Positions 1 to 38,125 of a DNA stretch of 38,668 nucleotides are shown piece after piece (position 1 is the stretch's first letter; every line of letters begins with the position of its first letter). The notes under the pieces were generated by a model that was given only the letters and a program-made list of their open reading frames with translations, was not told where the DNA came from and made no database searches. The stretch covers positions 1-38,668 of the forward strand of contig JAUCBJ010004937.1 of the NCBI GenBank assembly GCA_032718475.1, in the 5' to 3' direction. The position numbers and the translations under genes were made by a program. The stretch comes from Nemertoderma westbladi. Lineage: Eukaryota; Animalia; Xenacoelomorpha.

Positions 1-3000
1 TACCGGGGTGTCCTTATACGGTGTGTGGGTCTCGTCATCCAGGATTACCGGGGTGCCCTTATACGGTGTGTGGGTCTCGTCATCCAGGATTACTGGGGTG
101 CCCTTATACGGTGTGTGGGTCATTCTACTTAACCTTGCATTTCGTCATCCAGGATTACCGGGGTGCCCTTATACGGTGTGTGGGTCTCGTCATCCAGGAT
201 TACCGGGGTGACCTTATACGGTGTGTGGGTCTCGTCATCCAGGATTACTAGGGTGCCCTTATACGGTGTGTGGGTCTCGTCATCCAGGATTACCGGGGTG
301 TCCTTATACGGTGTGTGGGTCTCGTCATCCAGGATTACCGGGGTGACCTTATACGGTGTGTGGGTCTCGTCATCCAGGATTACCGGGGTGCCCTTATACG
401 GTGTGTGGGTCTCGTCATCCAGGATTACCGGGGTGCCCTTATACGGTGTGTGGGTCTCGTCATCCAGGATTACCGGGGTGACCTTATACGGTGTGTGGGT
501 CTCGTCATCCAGGATTACTGGGGTGCCCTTATACGGTGTGTGGGTCATTCTACTTAACCTTGCATTTCGTCATCCAGGATTACTGGGGTGCCCTTATACG
601 GTGTGTGGGTCTCGTCATCCAGGATTACCGGGGTGACCTTATACGGTGTGTGGGTCTCGTCATCCAGGATTACCGGGGTGACCTTATACGGTGTGTGGGT
701 CATTCTACTTAACCTTGCATTTCGTCATCCAGGATTACCGGGGTGCCCTTATACGGTGTGTGGGTCTCGTCATCCAGGATTACCGGGGTGCCCTTATACG
801 GTGTGTGGGTCATTCTACTTAACCTTGCATTTCGTCATCCAGGATTACCGGGGTGACCTTATACGGTGTGTGGGTCATTCTACTTAACCTTGCATTTCGT
901 CATCCGGGATTACCGGGGTGCCCTTATACGGTGTGTGGGTCTCGTCATCCGGATTACCGGGGTGACCTTATACGGTGTGTGGGTCTCGTCATCCAGGATT
1001 ACCGGGGTGCCCTTATACGGTGTGTGGGTCATTCTACTTAACCTTGCATTTCGTCATCCAGGATTACCGGGGTGACCTTATACGGTGTGTGGGTCTCGTC
1101 ATCCAGGATTACCGGGGTGACCTTATACGGTGTGTGGGTCTCGTCATCCAGGATTACCGGGGTGCCCTTATACGGTGTGTGGGTCTCGTCATCCAGGATT
1201 ACCGGGGTGACCTTATACGGTGTGTGGGTCATTCTACTTAACCTTGCATTTCGTCATCCAGGATTACCGGGGTGCCCTTATACGGTGTGTGGGTCTCGTC
1301 ATCCAGGATTCCCGGGGTGACCTTATACGGTGTGTGGGTCATTCTACTTAACCTTGCATTTCGTCATCCAGGATTACCGGGGTGACCTTATACGGTGTGT
1401 GGGTCTCGTCATCCAGGATTACTAGGGTGTCCTTATACGGTGTGTGGTTCATTCTACTTAACCTTGCATTTCGTCATCCAGGATTACCGGGGTGCCCTTA
1501 TACGGTGTGTGGGTCTCGTCATCCAGGATTACCGGGGTGACCTTATACGGTGTGTGGGTCTCGTCATCCAGGATTACGGGGTGCCCTTATACGGTGTGTG
1601 GGTCTCGTCATCCAGGATTACCGGGGTGCCCTTATACGGTGTGTGGGTCTCGTCATCCAGGATTACTACGGGGTGCACCTTATACGGTGTGTGGGTTCAT
1701 TCTACTTAACCTTGCATTTCGTCATCCGGGATTACCGGGGTGCCCTTATACGGTGTGTGGGTCTCGTCATCCAGGATTACCGGGGTGACCTTATACGGTG
1801 TGTGGTTCATTCTACTTAACCTTGCATTTCGTCATCCGGGATTACCGGGGTGCCCTTATACGGTGTGTGGGTCTCGTCATCCAGGATTACCGGGGTGACC
1901 TTATACGGTGTGTGGGTCATTCTACTTAACCTTGCATTTCGTCATCCGGGATTACCGGGGTGCCCTTATACGGTGTGTGGGTCTCGTCATCCAGGATTAC
2001 CGGGGTGCCCTTATACGGTGTGTGGGTCTCGTCATCCAGGATTACCGGGGTGCCCTTATACGGTGTGTGGGTCTCGTCATCCAGGATTACCGGGGTGTCC
2101 TTATACGGTGTGTGGGTCTCGTCATCCAGGATTACCGGGGTGACCTTATACGGTGTGTGGGTCTCGTCATCCAGGATTACCGGGGTGACCTTATACGGTG
2201 TGTGGGTCTCGTCATCCAGGATTACCGGGGTGTCCTTATACGGTGTGTGGTTCATTCTACTTAACCTTGCATTTCGTCATCCGGGATTACCGGGGTGACC
2301 TTATACGGTGTGTGGGTCTCGTCATCCAGGATTACCAGGGTGACCTTATACGGTGTGTGGGTCTCGTCATCCAGGATTACCGGGGTGACCTTATACGGTG
2401 TGTGGGTCTCGTCATCCAGGATTACCGGGGTGCCCTTATACGGTGTGTGGGTCTCGTCATCCAGGATTACCGGGGTGCCCTTATACGGTGTGTGGGTCTC
2501 GTCATCCAGGATTACTGGGGTGCCCTTATACGGTGTGTGGGTCATTCTACTTAACCTTGCATTTCGTCATCCGGGATTACCGGGGTGCCCTTATACGGTG
2601 TGTGGTTCATCTTATACGGTGTGTGGGTCATTCTACTTAACCTTGCATTTCGTCATCCGGGATTACCGGGGTGCCCTTATACGGTGTGTGGGTCTCGTCA
2701 TCCAGGATTACCGGGGTGTCCTTATACGGTGTGTGGGTCTCGTCATCCAGGATTACCGGGGTGCCCTTATACGGTGTGTGGGTCTCGTCATCCAGGATTA
2801 CCGGGGTGACCTTATACGGTGTGTGGGTCTCGTCATCCAGGATTACTGGGGTGACCTTATACGGTGTGTGGGTCTCGTCATCCAGGATTACCGGGGTGAC
2901 CTTATACGGTGTGTGGTTCATTCTACTTAACCTTGCATTTCGTCATCCAGGATTACCGGGGTGACCTTATACGGTGTGTGGGTCTCGTCATCCAGGATTA

Positions 3001-6000
3001 CTGGGGTGACCTTATACGGTGTGTGGTTCATTCTACTTAACCTTGCATTTCGTCATCCAGGATTACCGGGGTGACCTTATACGGTGTGTGGGTCTCGTCA
3101 TCCAGGATTACCGGGGTGACCTTATACGGTGTGTGGGTCTCGTCATCCAGGATTACCGGGGTGCCCTTATACGGTGTGTGGGTCTCGTCATCCAGGATTA
3201 CCGGGGTGCCCTTATACGGTGTGTGGGTCTCGTCATCCAGGATTACCGGGGTGACCTTATACGGTGTGTGGGTCTCGTCATCCAGGATTACCGGGGTGCC
3301 CTTATACGGTGTGTGGGTCATTCTACTTAACCTTGCATTTCGTCATCCAGGATTACCGGGGTGACCTTATACGGTGTGTGGTTCATTCTACTTAACCTTG
3401 CATTTCGTCATCCGGGATTACCGGGGTGCCCTTATACGGTGTGTGGGTCTCGTCTCCGGATTCGGGTCCTTATACGGTGTGTGGTTCATTCTACTTAACC
3501 TTGCATTTCGTCATCCGGGATTACCGGGGTGCCCTTATACGGTGTGTGGGTCTCGTCATCCAGGATTACCGGGGTGACCTTATACGGTGTGTGGTTCATT
3601 CTACTTAACCTTGCATTTCGTCATCCAGGATTACCGGGGTGCCCTTATACGGTGTGTGGGTCTCGTCATCCAGGATTACCGGGGTGACCTTATACGGTGT
3701 GTGGGTCTCGTCATCCAGGATTACCGGGGTGACCTTATACGGTGTGTGGGTCTCGTCATCCAGGATTACCGGGGTGACCTTATACGGTGTGTGGGTCTCG
3801 TCATCCAGGATTCCCGGGGTGACCTTATACGGTGTGTGGGTCATTCTACTTAACCTTGCATTTCGTCATCCGGGATTACCGGGGTGCCCTTATACGGTGT
3901 GTGGGTCTCGTCATCCAGGATTCCCGGGGTGACCTTATACGGTGTGTGGTTCATTCTACTTAACCTTGCATTTCGTCATCCGGGATTACCGGGGTGACCT
4001 TATACGGTGTGTGGGTCTCGTCATCCAGGATTACCGGGGTGTCCTTATACGGTGTGTGGGTTCATTCTACTTAACTTGTTTCGTCATCCAGGATTACCGG
4101 GGTGACCTTATACGGTGTGTGGGTCTCGTCATCCAGGATTACCGGGGTGACCTTATACGGTGTGTGGGTCTCGTCATCCAGGATTACCGGGGTGCCCTTA
4201 TACGGTGTGTGGGTCTCGTCATCCAGGATTACTAGGGTGCCCTTATACGGTGTGTGGGTCATTCTACTTAACCTTGCATTTCGTCATCCGGGATTACCGG
4301 GGTGCCCTTATACGGTGTGTGGGTCTCGTCATCCAGGATTCCCGGGGTGACCTTATACGGTGTGTGGTTCATTCTACTTAACCTTGCATTTCGTCATCCG
4401 GGATTACCGGGGTGACCTTATACGGTGTGTGGGTCTCGTCATCCAGGATTACTAGGGTGTCCTTATACGGTGTGTGGTTCATTCTACTTAACCTTGCATT
4501 TCGTCATCCGGGATTACCGGGGTGACCTTATACGGTGTGTGGGTCTCGTCATCCAGGATTACCGGGGTGACCTTATACGGTGTGTGGGTCTCGTCATCCA
4601 GGATTACTGGGGTGACCTTATACGGTGTGTGGTTCATTCTACTTAACCTTGCATTTCGTCATCCAGGATTACCGGGGTGACCTTATACGGTGTGTGGGTC
4701 TCGTCATCCAGGATTACCGGGGTGACCTTATACGGTGTGTGGTTCATTCTACTTAACCTTGCATTTCGTCATCCGGGATTACCGGGGTGACCTTATACGG
4801 TGTGTGGGTCTCGTCATCCGGATTCCGGGTGACCTTATACGGTGTGTGGGTCTCGTCATCCAGGATTACCGGGGTGACCTTATACGGTGTGTGGGTCTCG
4901 TCATCCAGGATTACCGGGGTGACCTTATACGGTGTGTGGGTCTCGTCATCCAGGATTACTAGGGTGTCCTTATACGGTGTGTGGGTCTCGTCATCCAGGA
5001 TTACTGGGGTGCCCTTATACGGTGTGTGGTTCATTCTACTTAACCTTGCATTTCGTCATCCGGGATTACCGGGGTGACCTTATACGGTGTGTGGATCTCG
5101 TCATCCAGGATTACTAGGGTGTCCTTATACGGTGTGTGGGTCTAGTCATCCAGGATTACTAGGGTGCCCTTATACGGTGTGTGGGTCTCGTCATCCAGGA
5201 TTACTGGGGTGACCTTATACGGTGTGTGGGTCTCGTCATCCAGGATTACTGGGGTGACCTTATACGGTGTGTGGGTCTCGTCATCCAGGATTACTGGGGT
5301 GACCTTATACGGTGTGTGGTTCATTCTACTTAACCTTGCATTTCGTCATCCAGGATTACCGGGGTGACCTTATACGGTGTGTGGGTCTCGTCATCCAGGA
5401 TTACTAGGGTGTCCTTATACGGTGTGTGGTTCATTCTACTTAACCTTGCATTTCGTCATCCGGGATTACCGGGGTGACCTTATACGGTGTGTGGGTCTCG
5501 TCATCCGGGATTACCAGGGTGACCTTATACGGTGTGTGGGTCTCGTCATCCAGGATTACCGGGGTGACCTTATACGGTGTGTGGGTCTCGTCATCCAGGA
5601 TTACCGGGGTGACCTTATACGGTGTGTGGGTCTCGTCATCCAGGATTACTAGGGTGTCCTTATACGGTGTGTGGGTCTCGTCATCCAGGATTACTAGGGT
5701 GCCCTTATACGGTGTGTGGGTCTCGTCATCCAGGATTACTGGGGTGACCTTATACGGTGTGTGGGTCATTCTACTTAACCTTGCATTTCGTCATCCGGGA
5801 TTACCGGGGTGCCCTTATACGGTGTGTGGGTCTCGTCATCCAGGATTCCCGGGGTGACCTTATACGGTGTGTGGTTCATTCTACTTAACCTTGCATTTCG
5901 TCATCCGGGATTACCGGGGTGACCTTATACGGTGTGTGGGTCTCGTCATCCAGGATTACTAGGGTGTCCTTATACGGTGTGTGGTTCATTCTACTTAACC

Positions 6001-9000
6001 TTGCATTTCGTCATCCGGGATTACCGGGGTGCCCTTATACGGTGTGTGGGTCTCGTCATCCAGGATTACTAGGGTGTCCTTATACGGTGTGTGGGTCTCG
6101 TCATCCAGGATTACTGGGGTGCCCTTATACGGTGTGTGGGTCTCGTCATCCAGGATTACCGGGGTGACCTTATACGGTGTGTGGGTCTCGTCATCCAGGA
6201 TTACCGGGGTGACCTTATACGGTGTGTGGGTCTCGTCATCCAGGATTCCCGGGGTGACCTTATACGGTGTGTGGTTCATTCTACTTAACCTTGCATTTCG
6301 TCATCCGGGATTACCGGGGTGCCCTTATACGGTGTGTGGGTCTCGTCATCCAGGATTCCCGGGGTGACCTTATACGGTGTGTGGTTCATTCTACTTAACC
6401 TTGCATTTCGTCATCCGGGATTACCGGGGTGCCCTTATACGGTGTGTGGGTCTCGTCATCCAGGATTACCGGGGTGCCCTTATACGGTGTGTGGGTCTCG
6501 TCATCCAGGATTACTAGGGTGTCCTTATACGGTGTGTGGGTCTCGTCATCCAGGATTACTGGGGTGCCCTTATACGGTGTGTGGGTCTCGTCATCCAGGA
6601 TTACCGGGGTGACCTTATACGGTGTGTGGGTCTCGTCATCCAGGATTACCGGGGTGACCTTATACGGTGTGTGGGTCTCGTCATCCAGGATTCCCGGGGT
6701 GACCTTATACGGTGTGTGGTTCATTCTACTTAACCTTGCATTTCGTCATCCGGGATTACCGGGGTGCCCTTATACGGTGTGTGGGTCTCGTCATCCAGGA
6801 TTCCCGGGGTGACCTTATACGGTGTGTGGTTCATTCTACTTAACCTTGCATTTCGTCATCCGGGATTACCGGGGTGCCCTTATACGGTGTGTGGGTCTCG
6901 TCATCCAGGATTACTAGGGTGCCCTTATACGGTGTGTGGTTCATTCTACTTAACCTTGCATTTCGTCATCCAGGATTACCGGGGTGCCCTTATACGGTGT
7001 GTGGTTCACTCTACTTAACCTTGCATTTCGTCATCCGGGATTACCGAGGTGTCCTTATACGGTGTGTGGGTCTCGTCATCCAGGATTACCGGGGTGTCCT
7101 TATACGGTGTGTGGGTCTCGTCATCCAGGATTACTAGGGTGCCCTTATACGGTGTGTGGTTCATTCTACTTAACCTTGCATTTCGTCATCCAGGATTACC
7201 GGGGTGCCCTTATACGGTGTGTGGGTCTCGTCATCCAGGATTCCCGGGGTGACCTTATACGGTGTGTGGTTCATTCTACTTAACCTTGCATTTCGTCATC
7301 CGGGATTACCGGGGTGCCCTTATACGGTGTGTGGTTCATCTTATACGGTGTGTGGGTCTCGTCATCCAGGATTACCGGGGTGCCCTTATACGGTGTGTGG
7401 GTCTCGTCATCCAGGATTACTAGGGTGACCTTATACGGTGTGTGGGTCTCGTCATCCAGGATTACTGGGGTGCCCTTATACGGTGTGTGGGTCATTCTAC
7501 TTAACCTTGCATTTCGTCATCCAGGATTACTGGGGTGACCTTATACGGTGTGTGGGTCTCGTCATCCAGGATTACTGGGGTGACCTTATACGGTGTGTGG
7601 GTCTCGTCATCCAGGATTACTAGGGTGACCTTATACGGTGTGTGGGTCTCGTCATCCAGGATTACTGGGGTGCCCTTATACGGTGTGTGGGTCATTCTAC
7701 TTAACCTTGCATTTCGTCATCCAGGATTACTGGGGTGCCCTTATACGGTGTGTGGGTCTCGTCATCCAGGATTACTGGGGTGCCCTTATACGGTGTGTGG
7801 GTCATTCTACTTAACCTTGCATTTCGTCATCCAGGATTACTGGGGTGACCTTATACGGTGTGTGGGTCATTCTACTTAACCTTGCATTTCGTCATCCGGG
7901 ATTACCGGGGTGCCCTTATACGGTGTGTGGTTCATCTTATACGGTGTGTGGGTCATCTTATAAGGTGTGTGGGTCATCTTATAAGGTGTGTGGGCCATCT
8001 TATACGGTGTGTGGGTCATTCTACTTAACCTTGCATTTCGTCATCCAGGATTACCGGGGTGCCCTTATACGGTGTGTGGGTCTCGTCATCCAGGATTACT
8101 GGGGTGTCCTTATACGGTGTGTGGGTCTCGTCATCCAGGATTACCGGGGTGCCCTTATACGGTGTGTGGGTCTCGTCATCCAGGATTACCGGGGTGACCT
8201 TATACGGTGTGTGGGTCTCGTCATCCAGGATTACTAGGGTGCCCTTATACGGTGTGTGGGTCATTCTACTTAACCTTGCATTTCGTCATCCAGGATTACT
8301 GGGGTGCCCTTATACGGTGTGTGGGTCTCGTCATCCAGGATTACCGGGGTGCCCGTATACGGTGTGTGGGTCTCGTCATCCAGGATTACTAGGGTGCCCT
8401 TATACGGTGTGTGGGTCTCGTCATCCAGGATTACCGGGGTGTCCTTATACGGTGTGTGGGTCTCGTCATCCAGGATTACCGGGGTGTCCTTATACGGTGT
8501 GTGGTTCATTCTACTTAACCTTGCATTTCGTCATCCAGGATTACTGGGGTGCCCTTATACGGTGTGTGGGTCTCGTCATCCAGGATTACCGGGGTGCCCG
8601 TATACGGTGTGTGGGTCTCGTCATCCAGGATTACTAGGGTGCCCTTATACGGTGTGTGGGTCATTCTACTTAACCTTGCATTTCGTCATCCAGGATTACT
8701 AGGGTGCCCTTATACGGTGTGTGGGTCTCGTCATCCAGGATTACCGGGGTGTCCTTATACGGTGTGTGGGTCTCGTCATCCAGGATTACTAGGGTGCCCT
8801 TATACGGTGTGTGGGTCATTCTACTTAACCTTGCATTTCGTCATCCAGGATTACTGGGGTGCCCTTATACGGTGTGTGGGTCTCGTCATCCAGGATTACC
8901 GGGGTGCCCGTATACGGTGTGTGGGTCTCGTCATCCAGGATTACTAGGGTGCCCTTATACGGTGTGTGGGTCTCGTCATCCAGGATTACCGGGGTGACCT

Positions 9001-12000
9001 TATACGGTGTGTGGTTCATTCTACTTAACCTTGCATTTCGTCATCCAGGATTACTGGGGTGCCCTTATACGGTGTGTGGGTCTCGTCATCCAGGATTACC
9101 GGGGTGACCTTATACGGTGTGTGGGTCTCGTCATCCAGGATTACTAGGGTGCCCTTATACGGTGTGTGGGTCATTCTACTTAACCTTGCATTTCGTCATC
9201 CAGGATTACTGGGGTGCCCTTATACGGTGTGTGGGTCTCGTCATCCAGGATTACTAGGGTGCCCTTATACGGTGTGTGGGTCATTCTACTTAACCTTGCA
9301 TTTCGTCATCCAGGATTACTGGGGTGCCCTTATACGGTGTGTGGGTCTCGTCATCCAGGATTACCGGGGTGCCCTTATACGGTGTGTGGGTCTCGTCATC
9401 CAGGATTACTAGGGTGCCCTTATACGGTGTGTGGGTCATTCTACTTAACCTTGCATTTCGTCATCCAGGATTACTGGGGTGCCCTTATACGGTGTGTGGG
9501 TCTCGTCATCCAGGATTACTAGGGTGCCCTTATACGGTGTGTGGGTCTCGTCATCCAGGATTACTAGGGTGCCCTTATACGGTGTGTGGGTCATTCTACT
9601 TAACCTTGCATTTCGTCATCCAGGATTACTGGGGTGCCCTTATACGGTGTGTGGGTCTCGTCATCCAGGATTACTAGGGTGCCCTTATACGGTGTGTGGG
9701 TCATTCTACTTAACCTTGCATTTCGTCATCCAGGATTACTGGGGTGCCCTTATACGGTGTGTGGGTCTCGTCATCCAGGATTACCGGGGTGCCCTTATAC
9801 GGTGTGTGGGTCTCGTCATCCAGGATTACTAGGGTGCCCTTATACGGTGTGTGGGTCATTCTACTTAACCTTGCATTTCGTCATCCAGGATTACCGGGGT
9901 GCCCTTATACGGTGTGTGGTTCATTCTACTTAACCTTGCATTTCGTCATCCGGGATTACCGGGGTGCCCTTATACGGTGTGTGGGTCTCGTCATCCAGGA
10001 TTACTAGGGTGTCCTTATACGGTGTGTGGTTCATTCTACTTAACCTTGCATTTCGTCATCCGGGATTACCGGGGTGCCCTTATACGGTGTGTGGGTCTCG
10101 TCATCCAGGATTACCGGGGTGACCTTATACGGTGTGTGGGTCATTCTACTTAACCTTGCATTTCGTCATCCGGGATTACCGGGGTGCCCTTATACGGTGT
10201 GTGGGTCTCGTCATCCAGGATTACCGGGGTGCCCTTATACGGTGTGTGGGTCTCGTCATCCAGGATTACCGGGGTGCCCTTATACGGTGTGTGGGTCTCG
10301 TCATCCAGGATTACCGGGGTGTCCTTATACGGTGTGTGGGTCTCGTCATCCAGGATTACCGGGGTGACCTTATACGGTGTGTGGGTCTCGTCATCCAGGA
10401 TTACCGGGGTGCCCTTATACGGTGTGTGGGTCTCGTCATCCAGGATTACCGGGGTGCCCTTATACGGTGTGTGGGTCTCGTCATCCAGGATTACTGGGGT
10501 GCCCTTATACGGTATGTGGGTCTCGTCATCCAGGATTCCCGGGGTGCCCTTATACGGTGTGTGGGTCTCGTCATCCAGGATTACTGGGGTGCCCTTATAC
10601 GGTGTGTGGGTCATTCTACTTAACCTTGCATTTCGTCATCCGGGATTACCGGGGTGCCCTTATACGGTGTGTGGTTCATCTTATACGGTGTGTGGGTCAT
10701 TCTACTTAACCTTGCATTTCGTCATCCGGGATTACCGGGGTGCCCTTATACGGTGTGTGGTTCATCTTATACGGTGTGTGGGTCATTCTACTTAACCTTG
10801 CATCTCGTCATCCAGGATTACCGGGGTGCCCTTATACGGTGTGTGGGTCTCGTCATCCAGGATTACCGGGGTGACCTTATACGGTGTGTGGTTCATTCTA
10901 CTTAACCTTGCATTTCGTCATCCAGGATTACCGGGGTGTCCTTATACGGTGTGTGGTTCATTCTACTTAACCTTGCATTTCGTCATCCAGGATTACCGGG
11001 GTGACCTTATACGGTGTGTGGGTCTCGTCATCCAGGATTCCCGGGGTGACCTTATACGGTGTGTGGGTCTCGTCATCCAGGATTACCGGGGTGCCCTTAT
11101 ACGGTGTGTGGGTCTCGTCATCCAGGATTACCGGGGTGACCTTATACGGTGTGTGGTTCATTCTACTTAACCTTGCATTTCGTCATCCAGGATTACCGGG
11201 GTGTCCTTATACGGTGTGTGGTTCATTCTACTTAACCTTGCATTTCGTCATCCAGGATTACCGGGGTGACCTTATACGGTGTGTGGGTCTCGTCATCCAG
11301 GATTCCCGGGGTGACCTTATACGGTGTGTGGGTCTCGTCATCCAGGATTCCCGGGGTGACCTTATACGGTGTGTGGGTCTCGTCATCCAGGATTACCGGG
11401 GTGTCCTTATACGGTGTGTGGGTCTCGTCATCCAGGATTACCGGGGTGCCCTTATACGGTGTGGGTCTCGTCATCCAGGATTCCCGGGGTGCCCTTATAC
11501 GGTGTGTGGGTCTCGTCATCCAGGATTACCGGGGTGCCCTTATACGGTGTGGGTCTCGTCATCCAGGATTCCCGGGGTGACCTTATACGGTGTGTGGGTC
11601 TCGTCATCCAGGATTCCCGGGGTGACCTTATACGGTGTGTGGTTCATTCTACTTAACCTTGCATTTCGTCATCCGGGATTACCGGGGTGTCCTTATACGG
11701 TGTGTGGTTCATTCTACTTAACCTTGCATTTCGTCATCCGGGATTACCGGGGTGCCCTTATACGGTGTGTGGTTCATCTTATACGGTGTGTGGGTCATTC
11801 TACTTAACCTTGCATTTCGTCATCCGGGATTACCGGGGTGCCCTTATACGGTGTGTGGGTCTCGTCATCCAGGATTACCGGGGTGACCTTATACGGTGTG
11901 TGGTTCATTCTACTTAACCTTGCATTTCGTCATCCAGGATTACCGGGGTGACCTTATACGGTGTGTGGGTCTCGTCATCCAGGATTCCCGGGGTGACCTT

Positions 12001-14420: not shown

Positions 14421-14476
14421 TTGTCTCTCTTCTAAATAATTTTATGTTTCAAATTGAAATATTTCTTTTATTTTAG

Positions 14477-14624
14477 AAATTGCTGCCAGCAGTTTATCAG
14501 TGGATCAGACTACGGGATATACATACTTCGCAGTGAACCGGTGGGGCCAGGAGGATGGGAGGTCTGTTTGGCGAACCTCAAGGGGGGGCCAGGGGTTGGA
14601 ACGAGTTGTATCCATTAATGACAT
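14477..14624 (+). CDS. LRP2: LRP2/megalin-like exon, YWTD-type blade (EIAASSLSVDQTTGYTYFAVNRWGQEDGRSVWRTSRGGQGLERVVSINDM)
   Basis: TTTTAG acceptor and GTTAGT donor. Open frame. Phase-2 end AT joins G at 27668 (Met). Not in the ORF track. Confidence 0.85.
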
Positions 14625-26600: not shown

Positions 26601-26928
26601 TTAATGACATGTACGTTAATTAAGTTGTATCCATTAATGACATGTTAGTTAATTAAGTTGTATCCATTAATGACATGTTAGTTAATTAAGTTGTATCCAT
26701 TAATTACATGTTAGTTAATTAAGTTGTATCCATTAATGACATGTTAGTTAATTAAATTGTATCCATTAATGACATGTTAGTTAATTAAGTTGTATCCATT
26801 AATGACATGTTAGTTAATTAAGTTGTATCCATTAATGACATGTTAGTTAATTAAGTTGTATCCATTAATGACATGTTAGTTAATTAAGTTGTATCCATTA
26901 ATGACATGTTAGTTAATTAAGTTGTATC
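14605..26928 (+). repeat. Intronic minisatellite 2: 33-bp AT-rich unit GTTGTATCCATTAATGACATGTTAGTTAATTAA, about 370 copies
   Basis: Unit read directly. The first copy overlaps the last 20 nt of the 14477-14624 exon. Recurrent variants include ATTGAATTCGTTAATG, CATGTACG, CATATTATG and CCGATAAT. Confidence 0.98.
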
Positions 26929-26979
26929 ATCTATGCATTGATATAATTTTGGTTGGACACACCTTTGCAAAGTCGGCAA

Positions 26980-27060
26980 TGACGTCCAGGTGGGATCGAA
27001 CTGGGTGACCTCTAAGTTGGAAGTTTGACGTATCAATTAATGATCGATTATTTAGCTTCT
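26980..27060 (-). pseudogene. Degenerate tRNA-like fragment or tRNA-derived SINE head
   Basis: The minus strand reads ...CTTCCAA...AGGTCACCCAGTTCGATCCCACCTGGACGTCA, with a B-box/T-loop-like GTTCGATCC and an anticodon-loop-like CTTCCAA. The stems pair poorly. Confidence 0.35.
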
Positions 27061-27156
27061 ATAAATAATATACTGATCGGCAAAGTGGTAGAAAAAATGT
27101 TTTTGTTAAGCCAGCTTAGCATCTCAATGTGCAGCTTCAACGCCGCAGGCCGATTA

Positions 27157-27180
27157 TAGTAGTAGTAGTAGTAGTAGTAG
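27157..27180. repeat. (TAG)8 microsatellite
   Basis: Read directly. Confidence 0.9.
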
Positions 27181-27667
27181 AGCGACAAAGTTCCGGCACC
27201 CCAACTCTATCACCCATCATACGAGATGTATTCCTATATTCAAGGCCATAAAGGTCATCAGGAAAGAAAGGGGCTCAAGGAATTGTTATCTACTCTACCC
27301 CTCACTCCTGTAAGGTGTAAGATAGACAGCCGATCAGGAGATAACTGACCGGATAGGCTGTCTGTGGGGTGGGGCCATTTGTGTACGGTTATTGCACTGA
27401 CCCCAGTGCCAGTGGACGTACCTCGCCTATACCCCACCACCAATGGGGATACAATAAGAAAACCATAACAACAGATCTGATGATGCATAGCCTTTGTAAG
27501 AGGGTCTATGCAGCCACAGCTGCGCTGCATGAGGGTGTCATGATTTCGGGATCAATGTCCCAGCAGACCTTACCTGACCCTATTTATCTTAGCTTAGGTA
27601 GGTAGTGTAGTGTATATTTGTCATTCTACAGTATATCCTATCTGAAACATAATTTATTATATTCTAG

Positions 27668-27850
27668 GTCTGTTATAACTCACACAGCAATGGATCCGGT
27701 GGCTAACAATCTATACTACCTCCGTGACGATGGATACAATATCAACCTCGAAGTCTCTCATTTACCTAGTCGACCACGTCATAGACTTATTCTACTAACT
27801 ATCGCTAGAGTAGAACAACCAGGCTGCCTTACCATAGACTACATACGAAG
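27668..27850 (+). CDS. LRP2: LRP2-like exon, YWTD propeller (SVITHTAMDPVANNLYYL...QPGCLTIDYIRR)
   Basis: TTCTAG acceptor and AG|GTTTGT donor. Phase 2/2 fits both neighbours. AMDPVANNLYY matches the 'AVDWVAGNLYF' type motif. Confidence 0.88.
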
Positions 27851-27970
27851 GTTTGTTAGGAATTGTCTACTTATTCTACAGTACTAACTATCGCTATAGT
27901 GTAGAACATTAAGGTTTGTTATGAATTGTCTTCTTATTCTATTAACTATCGCTAGAGTAGAACACCCAGG
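27786..27970 (+). repeat. Degenerate 2-3-copy duplication of exon 3' sequence and donor
   Basis: Exonic CTTATTCTACTAACTATCGCTAGAGTAGAACAACCAGG recurs at about 27870-27908 (degenerate) and about 27933-27970. The junction AAGGTTTGTTAGGAATTGTCT recurs at about 27911-27931. Confidence 0.85.
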
Positions 27971-28196
27971 TACGAACCAACTCACTCGTACATGAATTTT
28001 CTACTATTCTACATTCGGAAATGTGTGAACGCCAATAACTCCTTTAAGTAGCACAAGTGCAACTGATAGTTTACTATTACAAAAAAAATTAAAACATTGT
28101 AGGAATAATCTGATTTTGAACTCGGGACATAAACATTTTGCATATTTTTTACATATGCGGCAATATATTTATTTTATAATGTTTATTTTCTTCTAG

Positions 28197-28801
28197 AAAT
28201 CTGTTCTTTTGTAAAACCGGTTCGTTACGGGGAATATTTCGATCGTCTCTGGACGGTTCGACGGTGTCCCAGATCGTCGGACCTTCGGGGACCTTCTCGC
28301 CGTCTGCACGTCGGAAACGCGACGCGGAAACCTTCTCCCCGACCTCGATGGCTGTGTCGCTGGTGATGGACCGGATCTACTGGACGAACGAAGCGAGCCA
28401 CTCGATCGAGTACTCGAGGTCCGATGGATCCGGGCGGACCACCCTTGTCGACAACCTTCCCTCCCCGAAGGCCCTCGCACTGTCCGCCAACGGTAGCGTC
28501 ATCTACTGGTCCGACGCGGTACTCAAACAAATCCTCACCGTCAGCACAGAAACACCGACGGCTCAACAAGTAGTTCTTACTCAATACGCGGCCACTATTG
28601 GTTTAATAGAAAGCGATAATGTATCCATAGCGACAGTAGCGTCCCGCTGCCGTTCCCATAACGGAGGTTGCGCTCAGTTCTGTTTCGATAGCGACGCGAG
28701 CGACGCAAGCGTTTGCGCATGCGCAACGGGGGAGGTTTCTGGGCTGCGTTGCGATATCCCGTCGGAGTATATCGCTTACACAACCGGAGATTCCATAGAA
28801 T
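28197..28801 (+). CDS. LRP2: LRP2-like exon: YWTD blades (DRIYWTN, VIYWSD) plus EGF-like domain (CRSHNGGCAQFC...CACATG...C)
   Basis: TTCTAG acceptor and T|GTGAGT donor. In frame with ORF 28264..28911. Canonical YWTD and NGGC-x2-C EGF motifs. Confidence 0.92.
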
Positions 28802-28869
28802 GTGAGTCACCGGAATGCTATGTACGCGAGTTTGTAAATATAGTGAGCTGTTACTATAATGTTGCGAGA

Positions 28870-29104
28870 CAGAGGGGGAAACTGGACGCAAAACCCGCCT
28901 TGGCGAATTAATATCCCGCCTCAATGTTAAATTCTCAATTTAGGGAAAGGAGCATTTTACAGCGGCACGTTATTTTAACAAAAACAATAAACTAAACACA
29001 ATGCTACGGTTTTATTATTGAGAGTAATCATCTGTTATTTGCGTCCAATTTCACCTGGAGAGGGATGGATTTTTATTGCGTCCAGTCCCCCCCCCCCCTA
29101 TCTG
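28870..29104. mobile_element. Putative MITE-like element with imperfect terminal inverted repeats
   Basis: Left end CAGAGGGGGAAACTGGACGCAAAA. The reverse complement of the right end is CAGATAG(G)nACTGGACGCAATAAAA. Non-coding AT-rich interior. No clear target-site duplication. Confidence 0.5.
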
Positions 29105-29486
29105 AATGTTGCACATCTTCATCTTTCATCGCATACCGATATCTGCGTCTTCTGTCAATAAATCATTACTTAACTAAATAAATAAAGCTCAAGGCTAATT
29201 CTCCCGTCCTCAATTAAACGATATCACTATATTAACTTGTAAGGCTTTTTATTAATTTCGTTTCGTTTATTTTTACTTTTCTGTTGTTGGTGTGTTTCAG
29301 TATTACTTTTGTAATTTCGTTGACTATTAATTAATGACAACCATTATCTCTATGCTCAACCCCGAAGAGGGTTTCTAATAAATTAAATTTAGATCAACTT
29401 TCAATAAAAATGAATAAACCCGGTTCAATTTTATATTAAATCAATAAGCGATATTTTTTTATTACAATCTTGACTTTCCATTTCAG

Positions 29487-29693
29487 CTTTTACCTACAGT
29501 GGAGAGAATGCAACTTCAACTCCCATTCCTAAGATCACAGGTCTACAGGGAGCCACTAACCTCGCATACGATGTCGCCAACAGGTTACTTTATTTCACTC
29601 AAGGGAGTTACAAAGCGGGAATATATTACTTCCACCTGGACTCCAATGATATCACTACCGTCTATAAGGATTCCAATCTCACCAGGATATCAG
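29487..29693 (+). CDS. LRP2: LRP2-like exon, start of the second propeller (SFTYSGENATSTPIPKITGLQGATNLAYDVANRLLYFTQG...)
   Basis: TTTCAG acceptor and G|GTAATA donor. Phase 1/1. LAYD...LLYFTQ motif. Confidence 0.88.
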
Positions 29694-29972
29694 GTAATAT
29701 AAATCTATAATATTTAATAATTAATTAATAATATCATTTTTTTATTTATTTATATTATTTTTCTGAATATTTTATAATCAAAAGTGCTGTCAATACACTT
29801 TTCAAACGCACACAAAGCCGTGAATAATAGTTCAAATGTCTGAAATTTATACACAAGCCACATTGATATTTACCAAAACCAAAAACGTTACAATGTCAGA
29901 ATAATATTAGTAGCGCTGTAGGGTATAGGTATACTAATGGCTCGCAGCGCTAACCTATTCCTCTCACTACAG

Positions 29973-30253
29973 CCATCGCTTACGACTACCACCACCATCG
30001 GCTCTACTTCTACCACACCGCAATCGAAGCCATCTGTATGGTCAACGCATTAGCCAATGAGAACAGCTACATCGTGGTTGCCAGGGTGACGGAGAAGGTC
30101 CGCAGTCTGGTGCTGGACCCGTGCCACGGCTACATGTACTGGTCCCAGGGGACAGGGAACCGTGGTAGGGTTGTCCGTAGTAATCTCAGTGGCAGACAAC
30201 GGTTCGATGTTATTACAGGTGTAGACGTACACGGATTGGCCCTGGACTACTTG
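29973..30253 (+). CDS. LRP2: LRP2-like exon (AIAYDYHHHRLYFY...VVARVTEKVRSLVLDPCHGYMYWS...GLALDYL)
   Basis: CTAAC...CTACAG acceptor and GTAAGT donor. Phase 1/0. VARV...VLDPCxGYxYW is a megalin-characteristic motif as I recall it. Confidence 0.92.
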
Positions 30254-30645
30254 GTAAGTTATTGCCGAGGGTAACTTAATGATTCATAGACCATAGAAAT
30301 TATTTAGTAATACTTTTTTTAATGCGTTTTAAAGTTTTAGATTTTTTACATTTATTATATATAAAACTGATGTTTTGTATGTTCTGCATAATGGTACGAA
30401 CTTCATCAGCGGTAATATTATTCAACATTTTTTTCGCGTCAATTGAAGCGTTTAGGTAGAGAAAGGGAGTGTAACTTGGAGTATAAATTATTCCTAGAAT
30501 CTTAAGGCTTTTTAAATTACATTTAGTATATAATCACCTGTGATGTCGTAATATTTAACCTTCAATGTAATTAGTATGATAATTATAGATTTACTTTCTA
30601 GAACACAGGTGATAATTAATTCTTACATTTATCCGCAACCCACAG

Positions 30646-30849
30646 GATAGCCGTTTATACTTCACTAACTCAGCAGAACAACAGATTGAGTACATTAACC
30701 TGAACACTTCTAGTCATCAGCGGTTCATTGTGAACCAGGGCATGAGTTACCGAGGGATTGGTATCCACGGAGACAGACTCTTCTTCTACGACCAGCTGAA
30801 TTTCCATATCTACACGACCTTAAAAGGGAACGGGCAGGATTTCCTACAG
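30646..30849 (+). CDS. LRP2: LRP2-like exon (DSRLYFTNSAEQQIEYINL...GIGIHGDRLFFYD...GNGQDFLQ)
   Basis: CACAG acceptor and CAG|GTGTGT donor. 204 nt, open frame, phase 0/0. Confidence 0.88.
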
Positions 30850-30980
30850 GTGTGTAATAAGAGACATTAACAGGGAATTAAATTATATTTTATTTATAAA
30901 GTCAATATACTGACTTTACCACATGCTAATTTTATTTCATTCTGTATTTCATTCAGTTGTATTACTATATTTCCCCATAG

Positions 30981-31156
30981 ATGACCAGGAACCCCGTCTA
31001 CATGTACAATTTTGTCGCGGTTTCCGCCGAATCTCAGATCTGCCAGGCGACGGCTTGTGACGTCACCAACGGGTACTGCAGTCACGTCTGTCACCCCGGA
31101 CCCAACGGTGTGGCTGAATGTTCCTGTCCCAACGATGAATCTCAGAAACATCTTTA
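30981..31156 (+). CDS. LRP2: LRP2-like exon, EGF-like domain (CDVTNGYCSHVCHPGPNGVAECSCP)
   Basis: CCCCATAG acceptor and TA|GTAAGT donor. Phase 0/2. CSHxCxPGPNG-AECxCP matches the megalin EGF before the third LDLa cluster (recall). Confidence 0.9.
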
Positions 31157-31328
31157 GTAAGTTACACCACCACACTGGTGTCGCTACACTATTAATTGTA
31201 ATATATTATTAATAATTACATTATATTATTAATATTAATATTATTAATTAAATTATTAATATTATTATTAAATTATATTATTATACATTAATTACATTAT
31301 AGAATTAATTGGTAAGATATAGGATTGG

Positions 31329-32249
31329 TTAAGTTTTGTAGAACTCCATAACGGCCTGTTTAATCCTGGCTATTTCCCCCGGTCCCACCCTACAGCAGCC
31401 GCCCACCCACCCCACACCCCTACCCACCCACTCCCCAACCCACTCCTCTATCGCTCTACCCGCCCCACCCCGTCCGGCCGCATACCAGCGCGTCGTGGGG
31501 TCCCAGTCCTCGCCGCTGTTGGGGTAAACCCCGAACCGTTGGTTCGAACCCAGTAGCCCCTGTGCGGAATCCAGTAGCGGGGAAATAAACTCAGGGGCCG
31601 TACAGTTGATACCAACGATGGATACATTGGGGAGCTTACTAACTAGGGTAACAAAATCACAGAATCGATCCCCATTCACTAAATGCAATCCGTCTTTACA
31701 CGATACGCTTACAAGAGCTTTAACATTCGGTTGTTCTGCTATAAGAGTAAATAGGGAGTTGCATTCCTTGATGCTGGGAATGGTTTCGCACGCGATCAAA
31801 TCAATTTCGTTGTTGATCATGGCAGTGAATCTCGGTCGGTGCCATTCCGTTAACTCGTCCGTGGTCATAGATTCGGCGTAGGTGCCCGTGTACTCGGATC
31901 CGTCGCAGAGACAGGCGCCGTAGGGGCCTATAGACCCGGCGACCAGCACACTCTCGTTAGCAACACTCTCCCTAGCAACCCGTACTGCGCGACCCACCAC
32001 TTCGTCCACGGTTAACTCGTTCTGTTCCGCCCCGAGGTGGTTCCGCAGTAGCGCCTCGCTCAACTGGTACGTTACCGTGGATATCAGCTGACTGCCCGCG
32101 GCTACGTAGTCCTTGTAGACGCGTTTCAGTGTATCCCCCTGCCCGTTTATAACGACGTTGGTTGACCAGAGCGGAGTCCCGTAGATCGCACAGCCTCTCG
32201 CCTGTAACTCCGAACCCAACCCACCGCTTAGAATCCGACACGGGGTCAT
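31329..32249 (-). CDS. mmuM: Homocysteine S-methyltransferase (MmuM/HMT family), 306 aa, no introns in the CDS, nested antisense in an LRP2-like intron
   Basis: Family motifs GGLGSEL, PLWS, AG..IST.TYQ, GSIGPYGA.L.DGSEY.G.Y, ETIP, GINC, YPNSGE and GGCC (Zn-binding cysteines). Typical length for the family. Confidence 0.95.
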   Translation of the reverse strand: MTPCRILSGGLGSELQARGCAIYGTPLWSTNVVINGQGDTLKRVYKDYVAAGSQLISTVTYQLSEALLRNHLGAEQNELTVDEVVGRAVRVARESVANESVLVAGSIGPYGACLCDGSEYTGTYAESMTTDELTEWHRPRFTAMINNEIDLIACETIPSIKECNSLFTLIAEQPNVKALVSVSCKDGLHLVNGDRFCDFVTLVSKLPNVSIVGINCTAPEFISPLLDSAQGLLGSNQRFGVYPNSGEDWDPTTRWYAAGRGGAGRAIEEWVGEWVGRGVGWVGGCCRVGPGEIARIKQAVMEFYKT

Positions 32250-32261
32250 CGTGACTCGTAG

Positions 32262-32300
32262 CTGGTAACGTTAGCAACCACCAAAAAAACAATCAAATAA
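32262..32300 (-). other. Candidate splice or trans-splice acceptor 12 nt upstream of the HMT ATG
   Basis: The minus strand reads TTATTTGATTGTTTTTTTGGTGGTT-GCTAAC-GTTAC-CAG|CTACGAGTCACG-ATG: T-rich tract, branch-point consensus, CAG. Confidence 0.45.
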
Positions 32301-32317
32301 TAATTTTTGCCGGTACC

Positions 32318-32329
32318 GTTGCCGGTAAC
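32318..32329. promoter_or_regulatory. RFX X-box-like motif GTTGCCGGTAAC upstream of the HMT gene
   Basis: Matches GTNRCC(N0-3)RGYAAC, about 70 nt upstream of the ATG. Motif match only. Confidence 0.3.
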
Positions 32330-32496
32330 TGATAGTAGTTATCTGACAGGGATCTGGAATTATCCTCATGAAAATATATTTAAATATCCCTCCAATCCTA
32401 TAAGTTTCTTGAGTTACTAATTTTAGCCAATAAGGTTTCACCAGGTTCAACCATTTTACCAGCTCAAATTGTTGGAGCCACTAAGTCAGTGGGCAT

Positions 32497-32617
32497 TAGC
32501 ACGCAGATTTTTTTTTATAATTTATAAAGGAAACGAATGGGCAAACAGGGCGAGCCCTATATCCTGCCCATATATATTATGGTGTAGTAGTAGTATAATG
32601 TAGAATATAGCACGCAG
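32497..32617 (-). mobile_element. About 100-bp probable retroposed insertion flanked by a 10-bp direct repeat
   Basis: TAGCACGCAG at 32497-32506 and 32608-32617. A T9 run lies beside the left copy (A-tail on the minus strand). Internal hairpin ATGGGCA...TGCCCAT. Confidence 0.5.
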
Positions 32618-33122
32618 TTTAGTGCGAACGTAGTGAATGTCTGCACAAATTCAAATATGTTCTTCCAATGTTTCACAATTGGTGTGAACATATAGTTTGT
32701 ACATTGTGGTCTATAATGCTCATTGGCCTATACGACTTAGACGAGTTAGCGTCAAATCCCCACAGCATATTCACCATTTCTTACTTTCATGTGTTACTCG
32801 TGGTGGGTGTGTCTGTAAATAAAGGTAAATAACCGCACCCACACTCGACTTTATTTTCACTTTTCTTCGATTTTTTATTATAGGTTGTATAGTTATATAA
32901 AGTGTGCAAGCTAGTCGTGGGTTTTAGTGATTCCTTTTAATAGATTCACGTGTTCATGTTTATAAATAAATGGCACTTGGATCTAATTAATTAATCATTC
33001 ATAATTGAACTGTAATCTTATTTTTATTTTGGAGCCAAACAAACAAAATACTGGCGATACTTTTCTTCTATAGCGTTTCTGTATAACTGTATACTTTTAA
33101 TAAATGCCTTTTTTACTTTCAG

Positions 33123-33286
33123 TTTAACGAACAGTAACCGTATGTGCGTGGAGAGGCTGTTGGACTGCTCACACGACGCAAGTCGATTTACTTGTAGAAA
33201 TGCGGAGAAGTGCATCCCGGTTGACTGGGTCTGTGACAACGTGACACATTGCACAGATGGTTCGGATGAAGACGAGGTATTCTGTG
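33123..33286 (+). CDS. LRP2: LRP2-like exon: end of EGF and first LDLa repeat (FTCRNAEKCIPVDWVCDNVTHCTDGSDEDEVFC)
   Basis: TTTCAG acceptor and G|GTGAGT donor. Phase 2/1. LDLa cysteine pattern and DGSDE. Confidence 0.93.
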
Positions 33287-33389
33287 GTGAGTTTATGTGT
33301 ATCTTAAAATCCCTTAACCCCTTCCCCTCGTCTCTGAGGGACACAGGTATCTCACATACTTCTCAGTTGAGATCTACAACTGTGACCCC

Positions 33390-36300
33390 TAACCTTTCAT
33401 TATCTCCCCCCACTCAGCTCTCCCAACCTGCTGTATTTAACCTTTCATTATCTCCCCCACTCAGCTCTCCCAACCTGCTGTCTTTAACCTTTCATTATCT
33501 CCCCCACTCAGCTCTCCCAACCTGCTGTCTTTAACCTTTCATTATCTCCCCCACTCAGCTCTCCCAGACTGTTGTCTTTAACCTTTCATTATCTCCCCCA
33601 CTCAGCTCTCCCAACCTGCTCTATTTAACCTTTCATTATCTCCCCCACTCAGCTCTCCCAACCTGCTCTATTTAACCTTTCATTATCTCCCCCACTCAGC
33701 TCTCCCAACCTGCTGTATTTAACCTTTCATTATCTCCCCCACTCAGCTCTCCCAACCTGCTGTCTTTAACCTTTCATTATCTCCCCCACTCAGCTCTCCC
33801 AACCTGCTGTCTTTAACCTTTCATTGTCTCCCCCACTCAGCTCTCCCAACCTGCTGTCTTTAACCTTTCATTATCTCCTCCACTCAGCTCTCCCAACCTG
33901 CTGTCTTTAACCTTTCATTATCTCCCCCACTCAGCTCTCCCAACCTGCTGTCTTTAACCTTTCATTATCTCCCCCACTCAGCTCTCCCAACCTGCTGTCT
34001 TTAACCTTTCATTATCTCCCCCACTCAGCTCTCCCAACCTGCTGTCTTTAACCTTTCATTATCTCCCCCACTCAGCTCTCCCAACCTGCTGTCTTTAACC
34101 TTTCATTATCTCCCCCACTCAGCTCTCCCAACCTTCTATCTTTAACCTTTCATTATCTCCCCCACTCAGCTCTCCCAACCTGCTCTATTTAACCTTTCAT
34201 TATCTCCCCCACTCAGCTCTCCCAACCTGCTGTATTTAACCTTTCATTATCTCCCCCACTCAGCTCTCCCAACCTGCTGTCTTTAACCTTTCATTATCTC
34301 CCCCACTCAGCTCTCCCAACCTGCTGTCTTTAACCTTTCATTGTCTCCCCCACTCAGCTCTCCCAACCTGCTGTCTTTAACCTTTCATTATCTCCCCCAC
34401 TCAGCTCTCCCAACCTGCTGTCTTTAACCTTTCATTATCTCCCCCACTCAGCTCTCCCAACCTGCTGTATTTAACCTTTCATTATCTCCCCCACTCAGCT
34501 CTCCCAACCTGCTGTCTTTAACCTTTCATTATCTCCCCCACTCAGCTCTCCCAACCTGCTGTCTTTAACCTTTCATTGTCTCCCCCACTCAGCTCTCCCA
34601 ACCTGCTGTCTTTAACCTTTCATTATCTCCCCCACTCAGCTCTCCCAACCTGCTGTCTTTAACCTTTCATTATCTCCCCCACTCAGCTCTCCCAACCTGC
34701 TGTCTTTAACCTTTCATTATCTCCCCCACTCAGCTCTCCCAACCTGCTGTCTTTAACCTTTCATTATCTCCCCCACTCAGCTCTCCCAACCTGCTGTATT
34801 TAACCTTTCATTATCTCCCCCACTCAGCTCTCCCAACCTGCTGTCTTTAACCTTTCATTATCTCCCCCACTCAGCTCTCCCAACCTGCTGTCTTTAACCT
34901 TTCATTGTCTCCCCCACTCAGCTCTCCCAACCTGCTGTCTTTAACCTTTCATTATCTCCCCCACTCAGCTCTCCCAACCTGCTGTCTTTAACCTTTCATT
35001 ATCTCCCCCACTCAGCTCTCCCAACCTGCTGTCTTTAACCTTTCATTGTCTCCCCCACTCAGCTCTCCCAACCTGCTGTCTTTAACCTTTCATTATCTCC
35101 CCCACTCAGCTCTCCCAACCTGCTGTCTTTAACCATTCATTATCTCCCCCACTCAGCTCTCCCAACCTGCTCTATTTAACCTTTCATTATCTCCCCCACT
35201 CAGCTCTCCCAACCTGCTGTCTTTAACCTTTCATTATCTCCCCCACTCAGCTCTCCCAACCTGCTGTCTTTAACCTTTCATTATCTCCCCCACTCAGCTC
35301 TCCCAACCTTCTATCTTTAACCTTTCATTATCTCCCCCACTCAGCTCTCCCAACCTGCTCTATTTAACCTTTCATTATCTCCCCCACTCAGCTCTCCCAA
35401 CCTGCTGTATTTAACCTTTCATTATCTCCCCCACTCAGCTCTCCCAACCTGCTGTCTTTAACCTTTCATTATCTCCCCCACTCAGCTCTCCCAACCTGCT
35501 GTCTTTAACCTTTCATTGTCTCCCCCACTCAGCTCTCCCAACCTGCTGTCTTTAACCTTTCATTATCTCCCCCACTCAGCTCTCCCAACCTGCTGTCTTT
35601 AACCTTTCATTATCTCCCCCACTCAGCTCTCCCAACCTGCTGTATTTAACCTTTCATTATCTCCCCCAATCAGCTCTCCCAACCTGCTGTCTTTAACCTT
35701 TCATTATCTCCCCCACTCAGCTCTCCCAACCTGCTGTCTTTAACCTTTCATTGTCTCCCCCACTCAGCTCTCCCAACCTGCTGTCTTTAACCTTTCATTA
35801 TCTCCCCCACTCAGCTCTCCCAACCTGCTGTCTTTAACCTTTCATTATCTCCCCCACTCAGCTCTCCCAACCTGCTGTCTTTAACCTTTCATTATCTCCC
35901 CCACTCAGCTCTCCCAACCTGCTGTCTTTAACCTTTCATTATCTCCCCCACTCAGCTCTCCCAACCTGCTGTCTTTAACCTTTCATTATCTCCCCCACTC
36001 AGCTCTCCCGGCCTGCTGTCTTTAACCATTCATTATCTCCCCCACTCAGCTCTCCCAACCTGCTGTCTTTAACCTTTCATTATCTCCCCCACTCAGCTCT
36101 CCCAACCTGCTGTCTTTAACCTTTCATTGTCTCCCCCACTCAGCTCTCCCAACCTGCTGTCTTTAACCTTTCATTATCTCCCCCACTCAGCTCTCCCAAC
36201 CTGCTGTCTTTAACCTTTCATTATCTCCCCCACTCAGCTCTCCCAACCTGCTGTCTTTAACCTTTCATTATCTCCCCCACTCAGCTCTCCCAACCTGCTG

Positions 36301-37978
36301 TCTTTAACCTTTCATTATCTCCCCCACTCAGCTCTCCCAACCTGCTGTCTTTAACCTTTCATTATCTCCCCCACTCAGCTCTCCCAACCTGCTGTCTTTA
36401 ACCTTTCATTGTCTCCCCCACTCAGCTCTCCCAACCTGCTGTCTTTAACCTTTCATTATCTCCCCCACTCAGCTCTCCCAACCTTCTATCTTTAACCTTT
36501 CATTATCTCCCCCACTCAGCTCTCCCAACCTGCTGTCTTTAACCTTTCATTATCTCCCCCACTCAGCTCTCCCAACCTGCTGTCTTTAACCTTTCATTAT
36601 CTCCCCCACTCAGCTCTCCCAACCTTCTATCTTTAACCTTTCATTATCTCCCCCACTCAGCTCTCCCAACCTGCTGTCTTTAACCTTTCATTATCTCCCC
36701 CACTCAGCTCTCCCAACCTGCTGTCTTTAACCTTTCATTATCTCCCCCACTCAGCTCTCCCAACCTGCTGTCTTTAACCTTTCATTATCTCCCCCACTCA
36801 GCTCTCCCAACCTGCTGTCTTTAACCTTTCATTATCTCCCCCACTCAGCTCTCCCAACCTTCTATCTTTAACCTTTCATTATCTCCCCCACTCAGCTCTC
36901 CCAACCTGCTGTCTTTAACCTTTCATTATCTCCCCCACTCAGCTCTCCCAACCTGCTGTCTTTAACCTTTCATTATCTCCCCCACTCAGCTCTCCCAACC
37001 TGCTGTCTTTAACCTTTCATTATCTCCCCCACTCAGCTCTCCCAACCTGCTGTCTTTAACCTTTCATTATCTCCCCCACTCAGCTCTCCCAACCTGCTGT
37101 CTTTAACCTTTCATTATCTCCCCCACTCAGCTCTCCCAACCTGCTGTCTTTAACCTTTCATTATCTCCCCCACTCAGCTCTCCCAACCTGCTGTCTTTAA
37201 CCTTTCATTATCTCCCCCACTCAGCTCTCCCAACCTGCTGTCTTTAACCTTTCATTATCTCCCCCACTCAGCTCTCCCAACCTGCTGTATTTAACCTTTC
37301 ATTATCTCCCCCACTCAGCTCTCCCAACCTGCTGTCTTTAACCTTTCATTATCTCCCCCACTCAGCTCTCCCAACCTGCTGTCTTTAACCTTTCATTATC
37401 TCCCCCACTCAGCTCTCCCAACCTGCTGTCTTTAACCTTTCATTATCTCCCCCACTCAGCTCTCCCAACCTGCTGTCTTTAACCTTTCATTATCTCCCCC
37501 ACTCAGCTCTCCCAACCTGCTGTCTTTAACCTTTCATTATCTCCCCCACTCAGCTCTCCCAACCTGCTGTCTTTAACCTTTCATTATCTCCCCCACTCAG
37601 CTCTCCCAACCTGCTGTCTTTAACCTTTCATTATCTCCCCCACTCAGCTCTCCCAACCTGCTGTCTTTAACCTTTCATTGTCTCCCCCACTCAGCTCTCC
37701 CAACCTTCTATCTTTAACCTTTCATTATCTCCCCCACTCAGCTCTCCCAACCTGCTGTCTTTAACCTTTCATTATCTCCCCCACTCAGCTCTCCCAACCT
37801 GCTGTCTTTAACCTTTCATTGTCTCCCCCACTCAGCTCCCCCAGCCTGCTGTCTTTAACCTTTCATTATCTCCCCCACTCAGCTCTCCCAACCTGCTGTC
37901 TTTAACCTTTCATTATCTCCCCCACTCAGCTCTCCCAACCTGCTGTCTTTAACCTTTCATTATCTCCCCCACTCAGCT
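33390..37978 (+). repeat. Intronic minisatellite 3: 47-bp pyrimidine-rich unit CTCTCCCAACCTGCTGTCTTTAACCTTTCATTATCTCCCCCACTCAG, about 97 copies
   Basis: Unit read directly and highly homogeneous. The final copy supplies the acceptor of the 37977 exon. Confidence 0.98.
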
Positions 37979-38125
37979 GACCATGTCTGCGGCCCCGGTA
38001 TGTTTACCTGCGCTAACGGTCGCTGCACCTTGGAAACTTTTCAATGTGACCATGATGACGATTGCAGAGATAATTCAGATGAAATCGCGTGTAACTTCAC
38101 AGCCTGCGAACCCTATCAGTTCACG
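37977..38125 (+). CDS. LRP2: LRP2-like exon, LDLa repeat (ADHVCGPGMFTCANGRCTLETFQCDHDDDCRDNSDEIACNFTACEPYQFT)
   Basis: ACTCAG acceptor and ACG|GTTAGT donor. Phase 1/0. Canonical LDLa. Confidence 0.93.

Follow-up and report, generated by a model that had tools for sequence, protein, structure and literature searches.

How can a gene be spliced when hundreds of decoy splice sites lie in its introns, and where do such decoys come from? The question is raised by a 38,668-nt stretch of Nemertoderma westbladi DNA (contig JAUCBJ010004937.1; hereafter, the window), in which Tandem Repeats Finder detected three large arrays, at 1-14422 (array 1), 14604-26928 (array 2) and 33390-37978 (array 3). Together they cover 81% of the window, and all three sit in introns of an LRP2-like gene. 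The initial annotation of the window claimed that the units of these arrays, and of a fourth, low-copy repeat, were copied from the gene's own splice junctions, and knew of no named system to which the pattern belongs. The claim on origin holds for array 2, array 3 and the low-copy repeat, three of the four cases, and is likely for array 1, whose upstream exon lies beyond the window; a name for the pattern does exist, as discussed below. The explanation that we regard as probable is that the arrays are very large minisatellites of the type called mirages: three exon-edge duplications, likely four, that were expanded and have persisted through splicing at the exon-nearest site.

The gene model within the window consists of ten exons on the + strand, separated by nine GT-AG introns, between 14477 and 38523. 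Exon 1, the first visible one, starts a YWTD propeller (14477-14624), and both it and exon 2 (27668-27850) were placed by the gene model and alignment. By Pfam, exon 3 (28197-28801) encodes an LDL receptor class B repeat and an EGF-like domain, and exon 9 (37977-38125) and exon 10 (38310-38523) encode LDL receptor class A repeats. The gene model places exon 4 at 29487-29693, exon 5 at 29973-30253, exon 6 at 30646-30849, exon 7 at 30981-31156 and exon 8 at 33123-33286. When the ten visible exons were joined, they formed a stop-free frame of 776 codons, and Pfam matches to LDL receptor class A, class B and EGF-like families were found in five of them. The joined protein was 29-32% identical to large LRP proteins (best E 2e-106); among the seven proteins with the best scores, three bear the name LRP2 or LRP2-like, a fourth falls in a cluster with named LRP2 proteins, and three are unnamed or hypothetical. 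The domain order, in which YWTD propeller-EGF units are followed by a cluster of LDL receptor class A repeats, is that of megalin (LRP2), and judged from its sequence the host gene is megalin (LRP2)-like. Protein searches found no close relative, and the matches of exon 3 were 24-39% identical.

Several other features of the gene were seen along the way. Exon 3 encodes an insertion inside the propeller that carries a basic RRKR motif, which we take to be a possible furin-type cleavage site. Intron 7 holds an intronless ORF nested in antisense (31329-32270, - strand), a homocysteine S-methyltransferase (PF02574, E 8e-64) whose best-scoring relatives are animal proteins at ~41% identity (maximum 43%); it is possibly a retrocopy. 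An AT-rich low-complexity repeat (31190-31300) starts 33 nt past the exon 7 donor. At 27159-27600, a short TAG microsatellite precedes ~400 nt of intron that is richer in GC and may be what is left of a mobile element. An Rfam search over 26900-33420 gave no match at E<=0.1.

The origin of the units is clearest for array 2 (14604-26928, + strand), which the initial annotation had described as exon end plus donor. The first unit indeed spans the junction: the final 21 nt of exon 14477-14624 belong to it, and they are followed by 12 nt of intron carrying the donor GTTAGT. This 33-bp unit is repeated 372.3 times by Tandem Repeats Finder and 370 times by unit splitting. Units of exactly 33 nt number 351, with a mean identity of 97% to the junction copy, and 199 are identical to it. 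The donor sites are GTTAGT (324), GTACGT (40) and GTAAGT (3). The closing unit is a 9-nt partial one, as would be expected if a 9-nt direct repeat had seeded slippage. In most of the six proteins that cover this junction, the LRP2 alignment across it shows at most small gaps.

A fourth case on a small scale was borne out in the next visible exon. At 27786-27970 (+ strand), sequence comparison revealed ~2.5 copies of a unit in which the 65 nt that end exon 27668-27850 are joined to ~18 nt of its donor. The copies have diverged: they contain indels, their matched blocks are 94-95% identical, and reading through the repeat runs into a stop codon. This repeat resembles what array 2 would be without expansion. 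Both it and array 2 consist of head-to-tail units spanning a host exon-intron boundary, and are mirages by definition.

Array 3 (33390-37978, + strand) lies on the acceptor side. Its 47-bp unit, present in 98 copies by unit splitting and 97.6 by Tandem Repeats Finder, ends on the exon 9 acceptor and comprises 27 nt of the intron end and 2 exon bases, to which another 18 nt are added. The intron-end part contains a branch-point-like TTAAC at -25, a pyrimidine tract and AG, so that the earlier description of the unit as branch point, pyrimidine tract and acceptor stands as far as the motifs go. Compared with the last copy, the 29 nt of intron end plus exon bases are 99% identical over the 98 units, and CACTCAG occurs 97 times in the array. 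The remaining 18 of the 47 nt matched neither the exon nor the upstream flank; together with the presence of only 2 exon bases, this means that array 3 abuts the junction rather than truly spanning it. No older degenerate copies of the unit were found upstream of the array (P 0.76). LRP2 proteins align without a gap across this acceptor (exon 37977-38125).

The claim that the splicing machinery must pass hundreds of decoys was upheld. Only one of the 326 donor copies tested in array 2 keeps the frame, as does a single one of the 99 acceptor candidates in 33301-37980, the last, at the end of array 3; each time it is the copy nearest the exon, and every alternative site tested in the two arrays breaks the frame. 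LRP2 proteins align over all three affected junctions without array-sized gaps. The open frame and the LRP2 alignment across the junctions are indirect signs that splicing at the authentic sites may be kept.

Array 1 (1-14422, + strand) is a composite minisatellite that runs past the start of the window, and its origin is more difficult to read. Tandem Repeats Finder and unit splitting gave 297 units, of which 180 are 45 bp, 82 are 65 bp, 25 are 21 bp and 10 have other lengths; a few indel-rich units may be sequencing errors, so the copy numbers are approximate. Every unit contains a GTGTGT-type donor-like site (297 sites), a hexamer that also serves as the donor of exon 6. From the last of these donor-like GTs to the exon acceptor there is a 70-nt GT...AG stretch (14407-14476, + strand, from the site positions), likely the length that the intron had prior to amplification. 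The array is not a coding VNTR, as 80-387 stops occur in every frame. In the frame that joins the next exon, 179 of the 180 45-bp units are open, a count that rests on a few amplified mutations.

Profile comparisons were used to look for a coding relationship. An HMM built from 12 LRP1/2 segments, applied to 30 combinations of donor and acceptor, stopped short of the array 1 unit (best P 0.06); ungapped profile scoring gave P 0.43, and a third scheme gave P 0.14 when no frameshift was allowed. When one base was skipped in this third scheme, the match of the unit to the propeller's first strand block reached a score of 13.7, compared with a shuffle mean of 3.8 and with 9.1 for the matching block of this gene's next propeller. 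Two of 300 shuffles reached the score of the unit (P ~0.007), a post hoc value from the third scheme tried. These comparisons were mixed, one of the three favouring a coding origin; with the 70-nt distance to the acceptor as further indirect support, such an origin of the unit is likely, and array 1 is probably the copied end of an exon upstream of the window plus its donor. The common variants in the candidate frame comprise three amino-acid-changing positions against one synonymous, a preponderance that fits neutral turnover.

The 65-bp unit can also be divided in another way, into a branch-point-like motif, AG, 23 nt and a GT donor, and array 1 would then be a bank of 23-nt alternative microexons. 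Consistent with this, the AG is preserved in 43 of the 83 units that carry a branch-point-like motif, and read in frame with the next exon these 43 would encode four variants of a peptide. The motif, TTAAC at -21, resembles those at 6/10 real acceptors, which bear one between -14 and -27. However, AG is lost in the other 40 of these units (1/184 among units without the motif), just 42 nt separate one cassette from the next, the unit as a whole fits the end of a longer exon better, with one extra base, and the variants show block turnover unlike exon-like divergence. We find a microexon bank extremely improbable. The loss of AG was also considered as selection against decoys; a single mutation that was then amplified accounts for the counts, and they cannot show selection.

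With array 1 as a copied exon end, the gene would have four junction-derived repeats, and we compared the units with one another. The initial annotation called the sequences of the three arrays unrelated, which is essentially correct: P was at least 0.03 in five of the six pairwise comparisons of units, and 0.01, uncorrected, for the arrays 1 and 3 pair. In this one pair of six the units match at 12/13 nt around TTAAC (500 shuffles), probably by chance. Within the window, no 13-mer of any unit occurred beyond its own array. Blocks of variant units recur in each array; the recurring blocks are 15 units long in array 2 (shuffle maximum 5), 10 in array 3 (0) and 8 in array 1 (4), with 30 shuffles per array. 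Recurrence beyond the shuffles in all three arrays is a mark of unequal exchange and shows tandem-repeat turnover within them. In addition, arrays 2 and 3 both become more uniform toward the 3' end, whichever end bears the real junction; from the first to the last fifth, 5' to 3', the fraction of non-major units falls from 0.64 to 0.31 in array 2 and from 0.53 to 0.16 in array 3.

Repeats of this kind already have a name. PMC3087553 gives the name mirages to duplications that resemble minisatellites and copy intron-exon boundaries, 5' as well as 3', in the globin and Adh3 genes of amphioxus, with normal splicing and an unclear origin, and PMC3902484 adds PGBD5 and troponin C. Tandem junction repeats (VNTRs) are likewise described in the human genes F7, 6-16, CBS, LAMIN B2 and PDGF (PMC1557585). 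In F7 intron 7, the pseudo-sites of a 37-bp VNTR are functional and mutagenesis showed that the upstream-most donor wins; in 6-16 and CBS two further sites are used as well (PMC1557585). Variable internal tandem repeats at exon-intron boundaries of coding genes also occur in human segmental duplications (PMC2812944).

As far as these sources describe them, the arrays share with the amphioxus mirages (Adh3, BflGb6, BflGb9, troponin C and PGBD5) the tandem boundary copies on both donor and acceptor sides, the AG/GT signals, the turnover of the array and a normal mRNA, here a putative one, and the unit sizes overlap those of the Adh3 mirage (10-72 bp). With F7 they share a first unit that spans the exon-donor boundary, identical donors continuing into the intron, and a similar unit size (33 bp in array 2, 37 bp in F7). 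As in the human segmental duplications, a minisatellite has expanded at coding-gene boundaries. The differences mostly concern scale. BflGb6 has 3-6 copies, F7 has 5-9 and 6-16 has up to 25 pseudo-sites, whereas the arrays here hold ~100-370 copies (98-370) and are 4.6 to >14 kb each, and four cases occur within one gene. The F7-type VNTRs are described on the donor side only, whereas array 3 is on the acceptor side, and some repeats of the human segmental duplications make new introns or alternative transcripts, whereas the alternative sites of arrays 2 and 3 break the frame. Among the top matches listed for the host proteins, none was named as an amphioxus protein. The repeat type is therefore known, and what is unusual here is its size and density.

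How could such arrays arise and be tolerated? Our interpretation is that short exon-edge stretches were duplicated head-to-tail at three junctions, likely four. Seeding may have occurred by slippage at short direct repeats, of 9 nt for array 2 and 2 nt for array 3, and later expansion would likely have proceeded by ordinary unequal exchange. If the copied stretch is an exon end placed in the next intron, or an intron end repeated within its own intron, the exon-nearest site stays intact and the change would be nearly neutral. That site may be chosen by exon definition or by oriented scanning, as in human F7; use of the first site was shown experimentally in F7 and is deduced from sequence here, and the 98-370 copies exceed the 3-25 of the published cases compared, which makes the F7 rule an extrapolation. 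The arrays likely persist since the exon-nearest splice site still gives an intact protein. Use of a decoy would create premature stops, and rare decoy-spliced RNA might be removed by nonsense-mediated decay. The clustering at junctions could then result from short ancestral introns, the purging of duplications inside exons, and an anchor copy at the exon edge that cannot be deleted.

The question remains whether the contact with junctions exceeds what chance would give. We built an in-window null in which the arrays were collapsed to one unit, leaving 7,326 nt, 4,995 of them intronic, and seeds of 33-84 nt were placed with wholly coding positions excluded. A seed touched a junction with a probability of 0.12-0.35, and the joint P for junction contact was 0.006-0.011 for three repeats and 0.0014-0.003 for four; the window was chosen for this pattern, so that these values cannot show a genome-wide bias. 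The repeats at 31190-31300, 31405-31443 and 31948-31979, which are short or of low complexity and span no junction, were left out. Every repeat with a unit of at least 33 bp (four in all) touches a junction, that of array 1 being a presumed one. Part of the coincidence is accounted for by short introns together with a selection filter, although a joint P of 0.001-0.01 suggests that short introns alone do not fully explain the contacts. Duplications cover 3/20 visible junctions, and none was found over the junctions of exons 4-8 (29487-33286).

Two other explanations bear on these numbers. By the one, the genome is simply prone to minisatellites, introns are short, arrays start anywhere, and the window is the tail of a distribution. 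A chance of 12-35% per array of touching a junction is not small, and a P of 0.001-0.01 would often be reached among ~250,000 scanned windows; however, the ~5 kb of collapsed intron holds no purely intronic long-unit array, and we think such a coincidence quite improbable. By the other, which takes in the splicing-coupled seeding proposed in the initial annotation, exon-intron borders are favoured starting points for tandem duplication in this lineage, which would inflate introns; splicing-coupled R-loops, polymerase pausing and nucleosome edges are conceivable causes. That three or four of the four long-unit repeats touch junctions (in-window P ~0.001-0.01) speaks for this, as does PMC3087553, which describes the way mirages arise as unclear and suggests that they may be general in cephalochordates. 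However, this is one hand-picked window, 17 of its 20 visible junctions are free of duplication, selection and retention filters predict some excess without any mutational bias, and neither a sequence sign of R-loops or RNA templates nor a unit joining two exons was found. We therefore consider junction-biased mutation unlikely, though less so than coincidence, and equally doubtful the broader proposal that a lineage process starts duplications at junctions and grows them to tens of kb as the main route of intron growth, with the spliceosome ignoring the decoys. A literature search, judged on titles and abstract openings, found no study testing genome-wide whether minisatellites are enriched at splice junctions.

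With its mirage-type repeats and probable exon-nearest splicing, the LRP2-like gene is for now an extreme instance of something odd but already known. Genes with such arrays will trip up gene prediction and read mapping. The gene is also a natural test of splice-site choice, in which one donor would be used among 326 near-identical ones and one acceptor among 99. A junction bias, if true genome-wide, would explain how mirages originate and reveal a new way for introns to be gained and inflated.
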